A stretch of DNA of 64,000 bases from a virus: positions 20,862-84,861 of IMG/VR virus record IMGVR_UViG_3300033153_005382, one strand, 5' to 3'. The notes under the pieces were generated by a model. That model did no database searches and was not told where the DNA came from. It worked only from the letters and a program-made list of their open reading frames with translations. Shown piece after piece: positions 14,989-24,180 of this stretch. Each line of letters starts with the position of its first letter. The first letter of the stretch is position 1. Made by a program: the position numbers and the translations under genes.

Positions 14989-15870
14989 CTACTGACTAAG
15001 ATACCTAGCCCTCAACTCTGCAATCTCCTCCTGATCCGCTTCGGCGGGATCATCGCCTGTTTCCAAATCATACACTTCTGTAACTCCAGGAGCTACGAGC
15101 AGTCTAGAGAACAACTTGTCCGCTCTTCTCCTTGCTACTACTGATCGATCGAAACAAACGATCCGCCTCGGATAGGCGGATATTTCCTTCACCTGTGTAG
15201 GGCTAATCTCAAGACCGCTTATCGCTACGGCTCCCGGACCGGTTGCCCATACGTCCAACGGTCCTTCGTGGACAATAATCGTATGTCTTGCTAAATCCGC
15301 CCCATACAATATGTCTTTATGTGACAACACTTCCTGATTCTTAGCGGCCGACAGATACCTCGGTTGCTTGTCGCCGATTGCCCGTGTAGTCCAACTTACT
15401 GTTGTTCCATTGACAATTATCGGTATGAACAACCGCCAGCTATGAGTCTTGGCTTGTCCTATTCCTTGGACATCCCACCGTAACCTAATCTCCTGCGGAT
15501 CAAATCTCCTATTTTTCAGATACCGCAGATGGGCTTTTTCCAGATGACCTACCCCTTTGGGAATTATAACCCGGGATGGCCTTTCGACCTTTTGCTCATA
15601 GGCTAGCCTACCCTTAGTTAGCTGAAACACGATGTTTTTGACCCCTGCCCAGTTATTATGGGTCAACCTCATCAAAGCCTCACCTAACTTATGCTTTCCA
15701 CATCGCCAACACGTACAAAAACCATCCGCTTCGCGGATGCCTAGGTGCCACGCCGAAGAATAACACCATGGACATTGCACACCTACCCAACCGTATCGTA
15801 CATGCCTATGCGATCCTCCCTCCTTGTACTCGATCCTATGTTCGACAAGATATTCCGTCAATGCGCTCAT
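14989..15870 (-). CDS. DNA primase (Zn ribbon plus TOPRIM)
   Basis: CPWC...CWRC zinc ribbon; HEGPLD, CFD and DDPAE TOPRIM acidic motifs. Confidence 0.8.
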   Translation of the reverse strand: MSALTEYLVEHRIEYKEGGSHRHVRYGWVGVQCPWCYSSAWHLGIREADGFCTCWRCGKHKLGEALMRLTHNNWAGVKNIVFQLTKGRLAYEQKVERPSRVIIPKGVGHLEKAHLRYLKNRRFDPQEIRLRWDVQGIGQAKTHSWRLFIPIIVNGTTVSWTTRAIGDKQPRYLSAAKNQEVLSHKDILYGADLARHTIIVHEGPLDVWATGPGAVAISGLEISPTQVKEISAYPRRIVCFDRSVVARRRADKLFSRLLVAPGVTEVYDLETGDDPAEADQEEIAELRARYLSQ

Positions 15871-17348: not shown

Positions 17349-18704
17349 TTATAGCCCCTTGTCCCGTAAACCGGACAGCAGTTTGTCAAGAATATCAAAA
17401 TTATTCTTGACCTTACGTCCGTCCAAAACTGCTGTGAGAATCTCTTGCTTCTTCTGCAGAACCTTACACAACTTCTCCTCTATGGTGTCAGCCGCAACGA
17501 AGTACCTTACCCATACAGTACTTTCTGTTCCTATTCTCCAAGCACGATCCTCTCCCTGCAATGCTAATCCTGGCTGCCACGGCAGCTCGGCGAAACAGAC
17601 GTTCCTGGCTACTTGTAATCCATCCAGTCCTACTCCTGCTGCCCTTAGATTACCAATGAACAACCGTACCTCTGAATCGCTCCGAAACTGCTTAACCGCC
17701 TCAATCCTCTTCTTGCTACTAGTTGATCCATCTATCACAACTGACTTCCCTTTACAATTCCGCCTCAACGAATCAATAGCACCTGCGTGGATAGCAAACA
17801 CTACAAGTTTCTCATCCGACCGTTCCAGAAACTCGTTTATCCACTCGACTACGTATCGCATCTTCAACCTAGCTGCAAGTCTGACCAGATACCCGACCTT
17901 CGTCAATCCTTGTGAACGCTCGGCTTTCCTAGCTCGACCCTTATCCCATTCCTCTAGCCACTCTAGAAAATAACTATTCGCCTTCCGATACTCAGCCGGA
18001 GCCTTCATTGGCAACGGAATAACCGTTCTCACCTTTAGTGGAAACTGATCCAACACGTCGACTTTCCGACGTCTTACCATACACAAATCCATCAACTTGT
18101 CGTGCAATTCCCTTGTGTTCGACGCCCCATCGTACTTCCATCCCCATGGCGTCATCTGCGGATTACAATACCGTTCAATGAACTTCCATCGGCTCCGAAA
18201 CTCTCTTGGCTTCAACATCTTCAAAATCGAGTACATCTCAATGGTCCGATTCTCCATTGGCGTAGCAGACAATCCTAACACATACGGCACCCCTTTGGCC
18301 AAAGCATGACAAGCCATGGTCCGCTTCGCTTTCAAATTTGAAATCTTCTGACACTCGTCAATGATCAAAGTCCGAATTGGCAATTCCGTAAGCACTTTTA
18401 ACCAATGAGTCAAGATGTCGAAATTCACAACTGTAAGATCGACTAGGGGTAAACGCTTCCCTGGCCTCGTTCCCTCCAAAACTTGTGGCTTGACTCCTAA
18501 CACCTTCTCTGCTTCCTTAGCCCATTGACATTTGATCGAGGCTGGACATACAACAACGGCTGGGGAGGCATCGTCCTTGTGCCTCCCCAGCCACCAAAGC
18601 GAACAGTTCGTCTTTCCAAGTCCAGGGTCCCACGCTACGAGAGCTCTTCCCTTGAACTCTTCGATCCTATCTAAATCCTCGACTTGGAAGTCGTACGGTT
18701 TCAT
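17349..18704 (-). CDS. SNF2/HARP-like superfamily 2 helicase
   Basis: DPGLGKT, VCPASIK, IIDECQ, LSATP, KLVVFA, GVGLDG, QGEDRAWRIG. Confidence 0.9.
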   Translation of the reverse strand: MKPYDFQVEDLDRIEEFKGRALVAWDPGLGKTNCSLWWLGRHKDDASPAVVVCPASIKCQWAKEAEKVLGVKPQVLEGTRPGKRLPLVDLTVVNFDILTHWLKVLTELPIRTLIIDECQKISNLKAKRTMACHALAKGVPYVLGLSATPMENRTIEMYSILKMLKPREFRSRWKFIERYCNPQMTPWGWKYDGASNTRELHDKLMDLCMVRRRKVDVLDQFPLKVRTVIPLPMKAPAEYRKANSYFLEWLEEWDKGRARKAERSQGLTKVGYLVRLAARLKMRYVVEWINEFLERSDEKLVVFAIHAGAIDSLRRNCKGKSVVIDGSTSSKKRIEAVKQFRSDSEVRLFIGNLRAAGVGLDGLQVARNVCFAELPWQPGLALQGEDRAWRIGTESTVWVRYFVAADTIEEKLCKVLQKKQEILTAVLDGRKVKNNFDILDKLLSGLRDKGL

Positions 18705-19114: not shown

Positions 19115-19642
19115 CTAATCAACTTCCCACTTCTTCGGCTCACTCTCCCGGTGCTCTTTCAACTCCTTCTGCAAATCCCTCAATATCAAATTCCACTGCT
19201 TCCACTTCCTACTGATCTTCCTCGCTCTCGGAGTCTCGGCCATTGTGGAGAACTTTACCCGACGAGGCTTTTGGGATTTTCCTATTTCGACGATGTCGTG
19301 CATGGGAACACCTACATATCGATGCCACAACTCAGTCACAAACGTGGCGAACACTGGTCCATGCTGATATCCTTGCGTCAGTACATGAGCTACTTCGTGT
19401 AACACAACACACTTCGTCCATGACCACTCTGGCAGAACGATTCTCCAACTACTAGCCCTAGCATCCCAATTTCTCCGACCCTTAACGACTCTCGGAGGAT
19501 TCGAACCTGAACGATAGTCCTCCCAAACCTCTGCGACCAGGGATTTGCATTGCTCCCACGTCAAACGTTCCTCCAACTCCGGAAAGGTCTCACGAACCTT
19601 TTCCTCCCACCTATACACTGCACTCCTTTGACTATCCTTCAT
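19115..19642 (-). CDS. SprT-like zincin metallopeptidase
   Basis: VVLHEVAH...HGPVF; begins with a DSQRSAVYRWE N-terminus. Confidence 0.7.
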   Translation of the reverse strand: MKDSQRSAVYRWEEKVRETFPELEERLTWEQCKSLVAEVWEDYRSGSNPPRVVKGRRNWDARASSWRIVLPEWSWTKCVVLHEVAHVLTQGYQHGPVFATFVTELWHRYVGVPMHDIVEIGKSQKPRRVKFSTMAETPRARKISRKWKQWNLILRDLQKELKEHRESEPKKWEVD

Positions 19643-20139
19643 ATGGCATCTCCTATCTCGTTGAACACATTGTGCCACCGACATAGTGACCACTTCCATT
19701 CCTTAAAACACTTCCTCACGGCTTCCTCTCGGTCCTGCTTTCTTAGCCATGACTTGACAATCTCATCGCTCGTCTCCGTGATGGCGATGATCAATTTCCT
19801 AGCATCGTCAGACAACTCGAACATCAAAGTCCTCAACCGGTCCTGTCCTTGACCTGGATTACCATCCATGGTAGACCCATTGTTCTTGAACCTCTGCGAC
19901 TGCTTGATACACTTCTTACGTCGAATCAACAACCCTCCCCTCACCTGCCAATAGACCCAAGTCGAAAACTTCGTTCCCCGACTTGGATCATAGGTCAAAT
20001 AGGCCCGCGTATACCACTCCATGGCGGTCCCGATACGATCTTCGACTGAGCACTGATCACAACACTGAATCTGCCTAGCTAACTTGAAAATCAAAAGACG
20101 GACATCTTCATACGTTTCTTCCTTTGCTTCGGCAATCAT
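19639..20139 (-). CDS. Sigma-70 region-2-like transcription factor
   Basis: AYLTYDPSRGTKFSTWVYWQVRG matches sigma region 2.3-2.4 (FDP.RG.KFSTYA.WWIR). Confidence 0.7.
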   Translation of the reverse strand: MIAEAKEETYEDVRLLIFKLARQIQCCDQCSVEDRIGTAMEWYTRAYLTYDPSRGTKFSTWVYWQVRGGLLIRRKKCIKQSQRFKNNGSTMDGNPGQGQDRLRTLMFELSDDARKLIIAITETSDEIVKSWLRKQDREEAVRKCFKEWKWSLCRWHNVFNEIGDAI

Positions 20140-20506: not shown

Positions 20507-20725
20507 CTACTGCTTCATCCCTACCGACAATCCATGACTGTGACCATGGTGGGCATGTGCATGGGCATGTCCCGTCTTATGCTTGACTGTGACCTCTCCA
20601 CCGACAAGCTCTGCCAAGGCCTCAAGCATTTCATCAGCAGACTGATGGTTCTTGCCACTGACAGCATCAGTCTCGATCGTTATCGTACCGTCCTCTAATA
20701 TCTCAAACTTGATCGTATCCATCAA
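20507..20725 (-). CDS. DUF2997-like protein
   Basis: IKFEILEDGTITIETDAVSG..H....LEALAELVG with a His-rich tail; lies near the Ycf46-like ATPase. Confidence 0.55.
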   Translation of the reverse strand: MMDTIKFEILEDGTITIETDAVSGKNHQSADEMLEALAELVGGEVTVKHKTGHAHAHAHHGHSHGLSVGMKQ

Positions 20726-20777: not shown

Positions 20778-20966
20778 TCAACTCTGTCGACTGCAAGATA
20801 CTGCAGTCCCGTAGGCCTTGATCTTGTCCTCCAAAACGAGATGCCACGGCTTTTTGATTTCCTCGATTACCTGTCTTAACAGCTCACCGAGTTTATCTCT
20901 GAACTCTGGATCGGCCTTGTTGACCATTCCAATAACAGTGCCGGGATACTGTTTCTTGTAATCCAT
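20778..20966 (-). CDS. Hypothetical protein
   Basis: RBS GGAGG. Confidence 0.45.
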   Translation of the reverse strand: MDYKKQYPGTVIGMVNKADPEFRDKLGELLRQVIEEIKKPWHLVLEDKIKAYGTAVSCSRQS

Positions 20967-20977
20967 TTCGTTCCTCC

Positions 20978-21289
20978 TTAGAATCGACGGAGAACACCTC
21001 TCGTCTCAGTCTCGGATTTCCTTGTCCACATATTCATCTTAGCGACCCTATCCAACGCTGCAGACGAATATGCCCGTTTCAACTGGTTCAGCTTCGACTG
21101 CTGCCACTCCTCCAACTTAGCCTCCTGTCTTCTTAGGTCAATCTCAATTCCTTCGTTTTCCCTCGTCAACATTATCCTGTCCGCGTGCTCTGTAAACCCC
21201 CATCCTAAGTTCGTCAGAGCCTTGATCAACAAACCCTTGTGCTGAGCCTGAAACTCAACACTCATTGTCCTCACTTCGTAACACGGCAT
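20978..21289 (-). CDS. DUF1257/Ycf35-like protein
   Basis: LLIKALTNLGW...LNQLKRAYS....VAKM.MW pattern; context with the AAA ATPase and DUF2997. Confidence 0.5.
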   Translation of the reverse strand: MPCYEVRTMSVEFQAQHKGLLIKALTNLGWGFTEHADRIMLTRENEGIEIDLRRQEAKLEEWQQSKLNQLKRAYSSAALDRVAKMNMWTRKSETETRGVLRRF

Positions 21290-21743
21290 TGGATCGATCC
21301 TCCTTCTTGGACTGGTTCTCGTCTTGACTGACTATTTCGGACAGAATTTTCAGTTCAGGCAAAACAGTCTGTCCCAACTCCTCATTCAATCTCACCAACT
21401 CCTTGGCGATTATACCTACAGCATACCTCAACTGTTTCACAGTTCCCATGGCCGTCCCCCCATTGGCTTTGCTTTTTGTCCTGTGCGGCCAATTCCCTTT
21501 GATATAGCCCTCCGACCTCATCGCTACTGCAAACGACGTCAACGCGGACTCGGTTGTCTCCGCTCCGATCTCTTCGTGAATCAGGTCTACGGCTTTGTCC
21601 CTTGTAATATCGCTCTCCTGTATTCGTTTCCAGTTGTTCTCCAGCCAACGACGAATCGCATACGCTTGACTGGCCATAACTTGTTCTCCTGTGTTACGGT
21701 TGCCTGAGTCCTCAAATATAACCCCTAACCCTATGGACATCAA
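21255..21743 (-). CDS. Hypothetical protein
   Basis: ORF track; the likely start is MASQ after AGGAG. Confidence 0.5.
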   Translation of the reverse strand: MMSIGLGVIFEDSGNRNTGEQVMASQAYAIRRWLENNWKRIQESDITRDKAVDLIHEEIGAETTESALTSFAVAMRSEGYIKGNWPHRTKSKANGGTAMGTVKQLRYAVGIIAKELVRLNEELGQTVLPELKILSEIVSQDENQSKKEDRSNAVLRSEDNEC

Positions 21744-21763: not shown

Positions 21764-23242
21764 TCAGTTCAACTCCATCTTCCTCGTCCGAGTGTCCTTC
21801 TCGATCCTGAACAATCCAAGCTCCGATGCGGATAGGTACCGGCCATCGCAATCCTTACGAAGCTTTTCGATCCTTTCCCTATCCTGCGTGTACACCGGTA
21901 TGACATACTGAGCAGCTTCGGTCAAACTACAATCAAACTCATATGAGTTATCGCAGCAGTTCTCGATTTCTGCTCCAGTCCAATTCGTATCGTTCGGTAT
22001 GTCTTGGTTCGGATCCAAGTCATACTTCCTAAGGTAATGCTGCCATATCGACTCCCGCTCCTCCTTGGTCGGAAGATCGACAAAGAAAGTACCGCAGCGA
22101 AACCTCCTCCTCAACTCCGGCGGGAGCGAACTAATCGAATTGCACGTCGCGATCCAGAACGACTCCCCTCCAGTCACTGACGTCACTACCTTCAAATTCG
22201 ACCGCATGGCCGTCTCTGACTCCCCAACGAGCGATCCCTTCATCCCATTGAGATCAAACGCAATGGTCGGTACTCCAGCTTGGTTTCCCATCGCCTTCGC
22301 AATCAATGACTTGCCAGTTCCAGGAGGGCCAATCAAAATTATCCCTCGAACCTTGAAGTCCTGCATGTAGGTCAGCAACTGTTGCAGAAACCCCTGCGAC
22401 ACTCCTGACGAATCGCCGCCAGCGGTCGAACTGCCTGCGATCATCTTCTCGATCTCGTCGATGAACACAATCCCTTTTGGTGGTTTCCTTCCGTCGATGA
22501 CCATCTTGCCGAACTGTTTCAAGTTCGCCAGTCCTTGTATGTCATCAAAACTCTCGTTGCCCTGCCAGATCGAAATTCCCTTCTGCTGTTCCACTTGCCG
22601 CCGCTTGGCTTCCCAAACTCCCTCAGCGTCGACACCGTCCTTTAGAATGTTCATTGCAACGATATTCTCAGCCGCTCCGAGCGGCAATCCTCTAACGGCA
22701 TCTACGACCTGAGCCTTGGTCCTATCCTCCATCCGTGCCCTACCTTTGACGACTTCACTGGCCTGCTCGTCAAGCATTCCTACCATGCTGCCCAACGCCT
22801 CATCATCCGGATACTCCTCCTCGAGAATCACTACATCGTTTGCCAAACTGGCTGGCAGTGTCAAGGTCGCCCCTAACAAAACGACCATCCGTTGCGTTGC
22901 CTTATACGGATTCCTCAAATTCCAAATGCCCTGCCGAACAGTCGACTCGTTCAGCCACTCATCCATTCCCAAGACGAACATCACGATCCCTTCGGGCAAC
23001 TCGGGTGCGGCGTCCATCAACATGGCCGTTGGGTTGCCTATGACCTCACTATTCGCATAGGCCATCCCAAGTTCGTTCACACCCCAAATACCCCGAATAC
23101 AATCCCAAGCGACGACCGGCGTGTTGCCATTGACTGCTTCTGTAATCTCCTCGATGGTAGCTGTGGGATCGGGAGTCTCGACTCCTGTCAACGGTACGCC
23201 TGCTCGTCTGGCTCTTCTGAATTGCTCAACCAAACTCATCAC
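21764..23242 (-). CDS. Ycf46-like AAA+ ATPase with permuted motif order
   Basis: WDCIRG, FDDIQGL, FIDEIEK (Walker B), GPPGTGKS (Walker A), GESE, IATCN, LPPELRRRF, FFVDLP, TGAEIE. Confidence 0.85.
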   Translation of the reverse strand: MMSLVEQFRRARRAGVPLTGVETPDPTATIEEITEAVNGNTPVVAWDCIRGIWGVNELGMAYANSEVIGNPTAMLMDAAPELPEGIVMFVLGMDEWLNESTVRQGIWNLRNPYKATQRMVVLLGATLTLPASLANDVVILEEEYPDDEALGSMVGMLDEQASEVVKGRARMEDRTKAQVVDAVRGLPLGAAENIVAMNILKDGVDAEGVWEAKRRQVEQQKGISIWQGNESFDDIQGLANLKQFGKMVIDGRKPPKGIVFIDEIEKMIAGSSTAGGDSSGVSQGFLQQLLTYMQDFKVRGIILIGPPGTGKSLIAKAMGNQAGVPTIAFDLNGMKGSLVGESETAMRSNLKVVTSVTGGESFWIATCNSISSLPPELRRRFRCGTFFVDLPTKEERESIWQHYLRKYDLDPNQDIPNDTNWTGAEIENCCDNSYEFDCSLTEAAQYVIPVYTQDRERIEKLRKDCDGRYLSASELGLFRIEKDTRTRKMELN

Positions 23243-23307: not shown

Positions 23308-24180
23308 TCACTCGTCGAAGCTGAACTTCCGCTTCGTTTTCGTTACCAACCTTTCCAATCCTTTGGAAACCTCAGACAGTTCCTTGGTGACCTTGGCCTT
23401 CACATCACTCACCCGCAAGTCAGAAGCATCCTTGCCGTCGAGAATGTCCTGTGCCTTCGTGGCCAACGCTGCCAGTTCCCTGTCCTTCAACACATTCCTC
23501 TTGCTGAACAGATCCAAAAACTCCTTGACCTTCTCGACGGCTCTTGGGTGGAGCTTGCTCTTCGTTCCATCGGGGGATTCCTTAAGCTGACTAAGCAGAT
23601 GCGTAATCAACTTGGACAGTCCGACTTGTAATGCAACAGAGACCTGACCTTCAGCCACCTCCCACTTGGCCTTTGCCTTCTTCAACTCCTTCTCGTACAA
23701 CACTTCACCTAGCGTTGCGTTGTCAGGAGTCTGGAACTCGAGCAACTGCCAATCCAACCCAAACGCTCTTCGAATCCGCTCAACGCTTGGGAACTGCCGT
23801 TCGTCGAACTGTGACCTCAGCCTCTTCTTCGCGTCCTCCTTAATCGCTGGCCAATCCTTCGACAACTGCTTGGCAGCTTCGTCATACTCTTCCTTGGCCT
23901 TCTCCAATATCTCATAGCAATCTTCCAAGCAGTCGACTGGCATCAAGTACGTTCCGTTCTTAAACGGACTCGGCAACGCATACCGTGCCAACTTCTTCCT
24001 CACCGTGGTTCGTATCGATGCCGTCTTGTTGTAATACGGAGACCTGAAAATCTCCTTAGACATTTTCAACGAATCCGCATCAGCATCTACATCGACATCC
24101 GACAAAGATGCCGGTCGAGCCGCATTCGGCGTGTGAAAATTCACATCCAACACCACCGTCGCTTTCTGTAACCTACTCAT
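23308..24180 (-). CDS. DUF3150-like helical protein
   Basis: LARYALPSPFKNGTYLMP...FDERQFPSVERIRRAF; families of this type co-occur with AAA modules in mobile elements. Confidence 0.45.
   Translation of the reverse strand: MSRLQKATVVLDVNFHTPNAARPASLSDVDVDADADSLKMSKEIFRSPYYNKTASIRTTVRKKLARYALPSPFKNGTYLMPVDCLEDCYEILEKAKEEYDEAAKQLSKDWPAIKEDAKKRLRSQFDERQFPSVERIRRAFGLDWQLLEFQTPDNATLGEVLYEKELKKAKAKWEVAEGQVSVALQVGLSKLITHLLSQLKESPDGTKSKLHPRAVEKVKEFLDLFSKRNVLKDRELAALATKAQDILDGKDASDLRVSDVKAKVTKELSEVSKGLERLVTKTKRKFSFDE

Follow-up and report, generated by a model that had tools for sequence, protein, structure and literature searches.

A phage AAA ATPase family with the Walker B block encoded ahead of the Walker A block

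Does the catalytic core of an AAA ATPase have to be threaded through its fold in one fixed order? To our knowledge, AAA+ proteins are all taken to run from Walker A through Walker B to sensor 1, and every annotation profile assumes this succession. The question is raised by one gene on the minus strand of the 64,000-nucleotide (nt) stretch of DNA analyzed here (hereafter, the window), which covers positions 20,862 to 84,861 of IMG/VR record IMGVR_UViG_3300033153_005382, an 84,861-bp virus record that is about 90% complete. A preliminary description, made from the sequence alone, had noticed that in this gene the Walker B block stands before the Walker A block, with sensor 1 following, in one open frame with all motifs intact, and had proposed a naturally rewired P-loop topology. 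The translation confirms the order: the gene product is a Ycf46-like classical AAA ATPase in which block B (residues 254-297) precedes block A (residues 298-357), with block C following from residue 358. The proposal of a natural rewiring also held, with the family-wide order, the conserved catalytic residues, the structural model and co-evolution in agreement. Our favored reading, to which we assign a probability of about 85%, is that the protein represents a phage and prophage family of Ycf46-like AAA ATPases which combine an inactive domain resembling the first AAA domain (D1) of two-domain AAA proteins with an active second domain (D2), that a single relocation changed the order of the blocks while the ordinary sheet was kept, and that the protein likely functions as a remodeller together with partner proteins.

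Block order in the window protein and its relatives

The mechanically delineated open reading frame (ORF) spans 21764..23242 on the minus strand and encodes 492 amino acids (aa) from a GTG start. Because the sequence AAGGAG is found 7 nt ahead of an ATG at 23239, the codon that follows the GTG, and an identical database protein (P0001) is called with 491 aa, this ATG is the likely start of the gene (21764..23239, minus strand, 491 aa plus stop), and residues are numbered from it. The N-terminal domain (block N, residues 1-215; 22595..23239, minus strand) is, judging from the secondary structure of the model described below, a degenerate AAA-like alpha/beta domain with a lid, similar to D1; it contains no Walker motifs and has TPDP at the place of the P-loop. 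It is followed by an inter-domain linker (block L, residues 216-253; 22481..22594, minus strand), delimited by alignments and the block L profile and ending in FDDIQGLANLKQFGKMVIDGRKP, which carries the 'DIxG...K' pre-domain helix of classical AAA domains. What follows the linker is beta1 in normal AAA proteins and the Walker B strand here.

The relocated block B (22349..22480, minus strand; PKGIVFIDEIEKMIAGSSTAGGDSSGVSQGFLQQLLTYMQDFKV) is made up of the Walker B strand beta3, pore loop 2 and helix alpha3, and reads PKGIVFIDEIEK...GDSSGVSQ...LLTYMQD in translation. Its Walker B motif is VFIDEIEK (residues 258-265, with D261 and E262 at nt 22454-22459), GDSSGVSQ is the Ycf46-type signature of pore loop 2, and LLTYMQD belongs to alpha3. 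Block A (22169..22348, minus strand; RGIILIGPPGTGKS...MKGSLVGESE) consists of beta1, Walker A (GPPGTGKS, residues 304-311, nt 22307-22330), alpha1, beta2, pore loop 1 (KGSLVGESE) and alpha2. Block C (residues 358-470; 21830..22168, minus strand; GESFWIATCN..LPPELRRRF...WTGAEI) contains beta4 with sensor 1 (N367, nt 22139-22141), the second region of homology (R378 and R379, nt 22103-22108), beta5, and the helical lid with the WTGAEI motif. Thus, all the classical AAA motifs, GPPGTGKS, VFIDE, ATCN and ELRRRF (the second region of homology with the arginine fingers), are found, the catalytic roles of residues being assigned by alignment to solved AAA proteins and from general knowledge of the family; the collinear succession of beta1/Walker A, beta2, beta3/Walker B and beta4/sensor 1 is absent. 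The two blocks had been described as reciprocally swapped, which amounts to the displacement of a single 44-residue unit, block B: ordinarily found after helix alpha2, it here stands ahead of beta1. The similarity of the strands that open the two blocks (KGIVFI and RGIILI), also pointed out at that stage, is true of this sequence; at the family level, the consensus of the block starts is PxAVVFIDE for block B and xGxIFxGPPG for block A.

The displacement of block B is apparent in comparisons with proteins of normal order. The Pfam AAA profile (PF00004) matches the protein with 66.8 bits, compared with the curated cut-off of 21.2, in two stretches, the better of which spans profile positions 1-51 of 131. 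In a phmmer search of the Protein Data Bank (PDB), query residues 299-353, 256-306 and 374-432 align with residues 321-375, 380-429 and 437-500, respectively, of the VCP-like ATPase 5vc7. Two non-collinear high-scoring segment pairs (HSPs), as anticipated in the preliminary description, were obtained by BLASTP against gp60 of Rhodobacter phage RcTiptonus, a 569-aa protein annotated as 'AAA-ATPase'. The first (E-value 7e-20) has a 44-residue gap in the query exactly at the gp60 Walker B block (CVLMLDEIDKGFAG..GDSGTSQRVFGTFLTWMQE), and the second (E-value 0.013), which crosses it, ends with the pairing of query residues 256-294 with the same gp60 block. The aligned gp60 counterpart of GDSSGVSQ is GDSGTSQ, and that of LLTYMQD is LTWMQE. 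The Ycf46-type signatures, as defined from aligned relatives and general knowledge (a GDSGxS-like loop, an LTWMQE-like helix and a long non-catalytic N-terminal domain), are all present in the window protein. When profiles of the individual blocks were built from the permuted family alone, the block B profile matched downstream of Walker A in 119 of 120 homologues of gp60, the remaining one being a truncated sequence without a visible block B; with a median i-Evalue of 4.6e-10 and a worst value of 6.8e-07, the homology of the moved block is far beyond chance. Consistent with the Ycf46 assignment, the best viral structure matches are phage proteins named 'ycf46' in UniProt (E-values 3.8e-27 to 1.9e-20), and normal-order relatives are labeled 'SpoVK/Ycf46/Vps4 family' by JGI. 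The PHROGs family that holds the permuted proteins, phrog_8638, is annotated as unknown function; NCBIfam gives only short matches to the P-loop region, all far under the cut-offs, and PADLOC only short generic P-loop matches (IetA, 2.1e-10, residues 300-347).

The same order is a property of the immediate family, which is very large: a search of cluster representatives gave 8915 matches at an E-value of 1e-3 or lower and 1172 at 1e-30 or lower. The block profiles detected the order N-L-B-A-C in all 120 closest homologues, taken from 3719 matches among 8000 scored candidates. Block B also lies ahead of block A in all 148 further representatives of 50%-identity clusters (from the best 150 matches, all with E-values of 8e-100 or lower), in all of the best 80 viral loci out of at least 298 confirmed relatives among at least 591 pattern matches, and in 75 of the best 80 loci in bacterial genomes out of at least 532 confirmed among at least 600 candidates. 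The protein and locus sets overlap in part, and removal of identical sequences left 337 unique permuted sequences from proteins and viral loci. A search with a strict Walker A pattern missed 55 of the 120 closest homologues; many members of the family have a P-loop of the form GxxGxAKS. Among the carriers of the permuted gene are the cultured Tunturiibacter phage Tunturi_3 (gp103, 33.7% identity over 98% of the query) and the complete chromosome of Nitrospira moscoviensis NSP M-1 (locus L191); the host names given for the genome contigs belong mostly to metagenome-assembled genomes (MAGs) of Acidobacteriota, Nitrospirota, Myxococcales-type bacteria and Planctomycetota.

These independent genomes, which had been proposed as a check on the order, bear directly on the possibility that it is an assembly or chimera artefact of a single metagenomic contig. 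The window comes from an uncultured virus record, and its public read support is thin: one low-depth sediment DNA run contains matching sequence (share 0.21) in small contigs of 151-222 nt, and no RNA run was among those listed; the DNA run may be the source sample, in which case it is not independent of the window. The read check across the junctions, likewise suggested at the outset, succeeded in part: contigs bridge the junction near 22480 with 6 differences and that near 22168 with none, but not the one near 22348; a 33-nt piece at the latter has loose ends and probably comes from another organism. However, every close homologue examined has the same order in many independent assemblies, including a cultured phage genome and a finished chromosome, and the homologues are 36-63% identical to the window protein, so they are not copies of one error. 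An artefact is, in our judgment, next to inconceivable. The preliminary description had held that the idea would be refuted if canonical family members shared the order: those of the immediate family do, whereas the wider Ycf46-like and classical AAA relatives do not. The sharing within the immediate family rules out an artefact and does not refute the finding.

Catalytic residues and fold of the permuted domain

Across the 337 unique permuted sequences, E262, K310, G307 and N367 are invariant and position 311 is always S or T; R379 is retained in 336, K265 in 335, D261 in 330 and R378 in 314, and the lid motif WTGAEI is nearly invariant as well. This conservation, which extends to both Walker motifs, sensor 1 and the putative arginine fingers, would be consistent with ATPase activity of the second domain.

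A separate observation concerns inteins. Several permuted proteins of 650-900 aa contain Intein_splicing, LAGLIDADG or HNH domains, with the break located after query residue ~367, just past the sensor-1 ATCN, in P0245, P0385 and P0364, and at query residues ~308-311, within the P-loop, in P0353, P0354 and P0362; P0347 is also intein-bearing, and intein domains are likewise present in normal-order relatives of ~850 aa. Because inteins typically occupy functional sites, their positions in the P-loop and after sensor 1 were counted in support of the favored reading.

An AlphaFold2 model, built from 115 family sequences and no templates, is confident (predicted local distance difference test score, pLDDT, 94.7; predicted template modeling score, pTM, 0.88) and contains exactly the AAA set of strands and helices. 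Within block B, the strand and the helix have pLDDT values of 94-97, and residues 261-280, which include pore loop 2, have values of 77-87. Alignment of the whole chain with p97 (7lmz_C) using VIA-align gave a Z-score of 18.6 over 410 residues (model residues 1-489), and Foldseek retrieved Rix7, NVL and p97 with E-values of ~1e-12. The D2 domain aligned with that of p97 (6g2v) with a Z-score of 16.7 and a root mean square deviation of 2.5 A over 200 residues within model residues 223-477; because the aligner is sequential, these 200 residues correspond approximately to the domain minus one block. Three new links, all of them short, are seen in the model, namely from helix 238-249 to strand 256-260, from helix 280-294 to strand 298-303 (3 residues), and from helix 340-356 to strand 360-366 (3 residues).

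Co-evolution was analyzed by mean-field direct coupling analysis (DCA) of the 337 sequences (260 columns, an effective number of sequences of 281, and 32,385 pairs). The top coupling links residue 256, where the Walker B strand begins, with residue 356, where alpha2 ends; these two positions are 100 residues apart in the window protein and adjacent in normal AAA chains. Among the strand pairs, the best ranks belong to beta1-beta5 (31), beta3-beta4 (34) and beta3-beta2 (59), all of which are neighbors in the normal sheet, with non-neighbor pairs ranking from 350 to 1252; the chance that the top 3 of 10 strand pairs all fall among the 4 true neighbor pairs is 4 in 120. The textbook order of the AAA+ sheet is 5-1-4-3-2. 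DCA pairs beta3 with beta2 and beta4, and beta1 with beta5, in support of this sheet. The normal three-dimensional fold is probably kept, with the Walker B strand placed between beta2 and beta4, as judged from the model and the couplings.

Under a different interpretation, the upstream DE would not be a working Walker B at all, block B being a leftover of a degenerate domain and D2 either only binding ATP or inactive. The D1 domain is indeed clearly degenerate, and Pfam and PDB sequence searches match the catalytic domain only in pieces. Nevertheless, block B has its homologous counterpart in the segment of normal-order proteins that spans Walker B, pore loop 2 and alpha3, down to the GDS(S/G)GxS and LTWMQ(D/E) signatures, and D261 and E262 are retained as noted above. 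Moreover, the block B strand is coupled to three elements of D2, namely beta2, beta4 and the end of alpha2, and only a 3-residue link separates alpha2 from the sensor-1 strand, which leaves no alternative Walker B there. We consider such a leftover quite improbable. Even less probable, in our view, is a domain-swapped ring in which block B completes the sheet of the neighboring subunit. Intimate interfaces are common in AAA rings, and co-evolution is blind to the difference between contacts within and between chains of a homo-oligomer; yet alpha3 ends at residue 294 and beta1 starts at residue 298, so that the three residues between them cannot reach another subunit, and the monomer model is compact and confident throughout block B.

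Three connections are changed: linker to beta3, alpha3 to beta1, and alpha2 to beta4. Given the sheet order quoted above, each new link would reach a strand only one or two places from its normal target, and all three would be found along the N-terminal edge of the parallel sheet, across from the ATP site and the pore loops. Both Walker motifs, sensor 1 and the arginine fingers would then keep their usual positions, and the change may be tolerated because the new links are short-range and located away from the nucleotide site.

Normal-order relatives and the origin of the rewiring

The family has relatives in which the blocks have not been rearranged. In addition to the gp60 homologues, among which block A precedes block B in 119 of 120, 78 viral loci were found with the normal-order alignment. 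Of these, 69 have A before B, 7 yield no block B at 1e-3 (weak, intein-split or truncated copies), and 2, L160 and L161, are divergent sequences of the permuted family. The order N-L-A-B-C is also that of five Planctomycetota proteins (L237-L241), whose strong matches to the linker and block C profiles of the permuted family (block C E-values of 1e-33 to 1e-36) mark them as its nearest normal-order kin. When the window protein is aligned with this Planctomycetota sister group, one unit is seen to have moved, consisting of the hhhhDE strand, the GDS(S/T)GV(S/T) pore loop 2 and the LLT(Y/W)(M/L)(Q/N)D helix. Its old site lies between ...ADAMAP and VFFVGTCN..., and its new site between the linker (...P-x-K/R-G) and the RG-hhhh-GPPG strand.

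Phylogenetic trees were reconstructed by quick searches from blocks A and C only, with the moved block omitted and an FtsH-like giant-virus protein (L159) as the outgroup. In the tree of 84 rows, the 49 permuted rows form one clade nested among the normal-order rows, with a support of 82 in the Shimodaira-Hasegawa-like approximate likelihood ratio test (SH-aLRT); its successive sisters all have the normal order, namely L158 (66), the Planctomycetota group (91) and L148 (85). In the first tree, of 74 rows, the 43 permuted rows are on one side of a branch with a support of 66. Both trees require one change of the order state, compared with ~23-27 for shuffled labels. A rewiring that arose more than once could be argued from the merely moderate support for the permuted clade in the two trees (66 and 82) and from the divergent, long-branch permuted sequences L161 and P0337, which lie near the base beside the normal-order L158 and L148. 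The count of a single state change speaks against such recurrence, and so do the three junctions and the block limits, which are common to all permuted members; we regard it as unlikely. A single relocation is, on the strength of these sequence comparisons, the best reading and is not proven.

In the ancestor of the family, then, one contiguous unit would have moved once, from behind alpha2 to a site between the inter-domain linker and beta1. One conceivable route, offered here as conjecture, is a tandem duplication of A-B followed by the loss of the first A and the last B.

Several points weigh against the favored reading. As regards the origin, the support for the permuted clade is moderate in both trees, which come from quick searches, and long branches (L158, L148 and L161) lie close to the key node. 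No duplication intermediate (B-A-B, A-B-A or A-B-A-B) was found among the 388 proteins and 238 loci listed as best matches, as distinct from the thousands of weaker matches, so that the duplication route is unsupported. As regards the fold, the neighbor pair beta1-beta4 is weakly coupled (rank 360), no better than the non-neighbor pair beta4-beta5 (350), and co-evolution cannot separate intra-chain from inter-chain contacts in a ring. Sequential aligners cannot place the moved block, and AlphaFold may lean on knowledge of AAA folds. As regards the mechanism, pore loop 1 has Leu in 269 of the 337 sequences at the position where classical AAA unfoldases have an aromatic residue, and the Gly before the P-loop Lys (residue 309, window positions 22313-22315) is replaced by Ala in 114 of the 337. 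In a further 20 sequences, this residue is Ser; the window copy has the usual GK, and the Ala-before-Lys variant of the P-loop is shared by MCM proteins.

The gene module and comparison with known systems

The permuted gene belongs to a shared gene module, which we traced with jackhmmer profiles built from the window's own neighbor genes. Directly upstream of the AAA gene is a gene for a 290-aa DUF3150-like partner (23308..24180, minus strand), which matches Pfam DUF3150 with an E-value of 3.7e-4, under the curated cut-off; of the 17 members of this partner family, 6 match DUF3150, the best at 2e-18. A DUF3150-like gene is located within 4 kb of the permuted AAA gene in 72 of the 80 viral loci and within 3 kb in 56 of the 80 genome loci. 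A complex prediction for the AAA and DUF3150-like proteins gave a score of 0.00 against a mark of 0.32, which speaks neither for nor against binding. Downstream of the AAA gene are two small genes. One is DUF1257 (Ycf35)-like (103 aa; 20978..21289, minus strand); the window copy has no Pfam match, 2 of the 15 family members match DUF1257 (best 1.7e-8), and the family is present in 49 of the 80 permuted viral loci. The other is tentatively DUF2997-like (72 aa; 20507..20725, minus strand), with a Pfam E-value of 0.024, under the cut-off; none of its 15 family members matches Pfam at 0.01, and the family is present in 34 of the 80 loci. A cyanobacterial DUF2997-DUF1257(ycf35)-fed7 cluster figures in a passage of PMC4284462. 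Two further ORFs inside the cassette, 21255-21743 (162 aa) and 20778-20966 (62 aa), are matched by no Pfam or PHROG family and by nothing in the 160 related loci searched, and PADLOC returned no meaningful match for the neighbor genes.

The order of genes in this module is not fixed: the window has the DUF3150-like gene upstream of the AAA gene, but 65 of the 72 viral loci with such a gene carry it downstream, and in most loci, including that of Nitrospira moscoviensis, all three partners follow the AAA gene. All three partner types also adjoin normal-order AAA genes in L113, L124, L136, L137, L139 and L158, and the DUF3150-like gene alone does so in L148, L237 and L241. Because the same partners stand beside normal-order genes, the module predates the rewiring. 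Separately, gp96 of Tunturi_3 (L002:7696-8655), annotated as 'HNH endonuclease', matches the DUF3150-like protein of the window (tblastn, 5e-14, 254 residues), and this annotation may be wrong.

Downstream of the cassette, the minus strand encodes a sigma-70 region 2 protein (19639-20139), a weakly SprT-like protein (19115-19699), an SNF2-family helicase (17349-18704) and a primase-like protein (14989-15870). The proximity of the sigma-70 region 2, SNF2 helicase and primase-like genes suggests that the AAA module sits in an early or replication region. The minus strand carries every long ORF of the window, the GC skew is strongly negative all along it (between -0.18 and -0.42 per 2 kb), and an Rfam search over the whole 64,000-nt window detected no family at the gathering threshold.

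By analogy with its fold relatives, the protein is most likely a ring-forming, ATP-driven remodeller, and its probable partners are the products of the adjoining DUF3150, DUF1257-like and small DUF2997-like genes. The resulting module of an AAA ATPase with DUF3150, DUF1257-like and small proteins is an uncharacterised one, encountered in Acidobacteriota, Nitrospirota, Planctomycetota, Myxococcota-type MAGs and many uncultured phages. The existence of permuted and normal-order proteins within the same module provides a natural pair with which the effects of chain connectivity on folding, ring assembly and the coupling of ATP to the pore loops could be studied, and the permuted family, widespread and evidently under selection, would indicate that the AAA fold tolerates internal re-threading. 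A practical consequence is that collinear profile methods under-annotate such proteins, which appear as fragments in Pfam and PDB searches and as unknown function in PHROGs.

Phrase searches of the literature, not extending to supplements, found no account of Walker B preceding Walker A in an AAA or AAA+ protein; in the passages concerned of PMC7824862 and PMC10853773, 'permuted' refers to DNA methylases. As far as searched, the arrangement is undescribed in print. A more speculative view, which we hold with considerable reserve, is that this family may be the first case in nature of an AAA+/ASCE catalytic core re-threaded in a non-circular way, and that the change may be non-neutral, with altered allosteric coupling. 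The moved helix normally carries the inter-subunit signalling motif. In the permuted chain, the Walker B strand, pore loop 2 and this helix would stand directly between the D1-D2 linker and the P-loop strand, which might create a new mechanical path from the inactive D1 or the linker to the catalytic glutamate and the pore loop. If true, this would make the family a classical AAA ring with altered allosteric coupling and a natural template for re-threading AAA cores by design.

The closest comparison is with the normal-order Ycf46-like kin, which include RcTiptonus gp60, a Pseudomonas phage SM1 protein (UniProt 'ycf46'), the Planctomycetota proteins L237-L241, and the viral L158, L148, L113 and L136. 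Both groups consist of ~490-580-aa proteins with a degenerate D1-like domain and one presumably active classical AAA domain that share Walker A, a GxSE pore loop 1, hhhhDEI(D/E)K, a GDS(S/G)GxS pore loop 2, an LTWMQ(D/E) helix, an ATxN sensor 1, an LPPE..R region and a (W/F)(T/S)GAEI lid; the two also have in common phage contigs of ~85-105 kb and, in several lineages, DUF3150, DUF1257-like and DUF2997-like neighbors. They differ in that the blocks run A-B-C in the kin and B-A-C in the window family. With the type II AAA unfoldases (p97/VCP, Cdc48, Rix7, NVL and Drg1/AFG2), which provide the best PDB sequence matches, the window protein shares the two-domain fold at 13-22% identity; unlike them, it lacks an N-terminal substrate or adaptor domain and nucleotide motifs in D1, its D2 is re-threaded, and Leu takes the place of the aromatic residue in pore loop 1.

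Natural P-loop NTPases with an altered order of nucleotide motifs are otherwise represented, among the cases found here, by the circularly permuted GTPases, which keep their fold. These include YlqF/YawG, YqeH, RsgA and cpRAS (abstracts of PMC2430557, PMC2848588 and PMC2741578). They belong to TRAFAC, have new termini and follow the order G4-G5-G1-G2-G3. Circular permutation is ruled out for the window protein: the N-terminal domain, the linker and the C-terminal lid are in place, and only the internal blocks A and B are exchanged. Unlike the permuted GTPases, the window family has unchanged termini and an internal block moved within an AAA core of the ASCE type.

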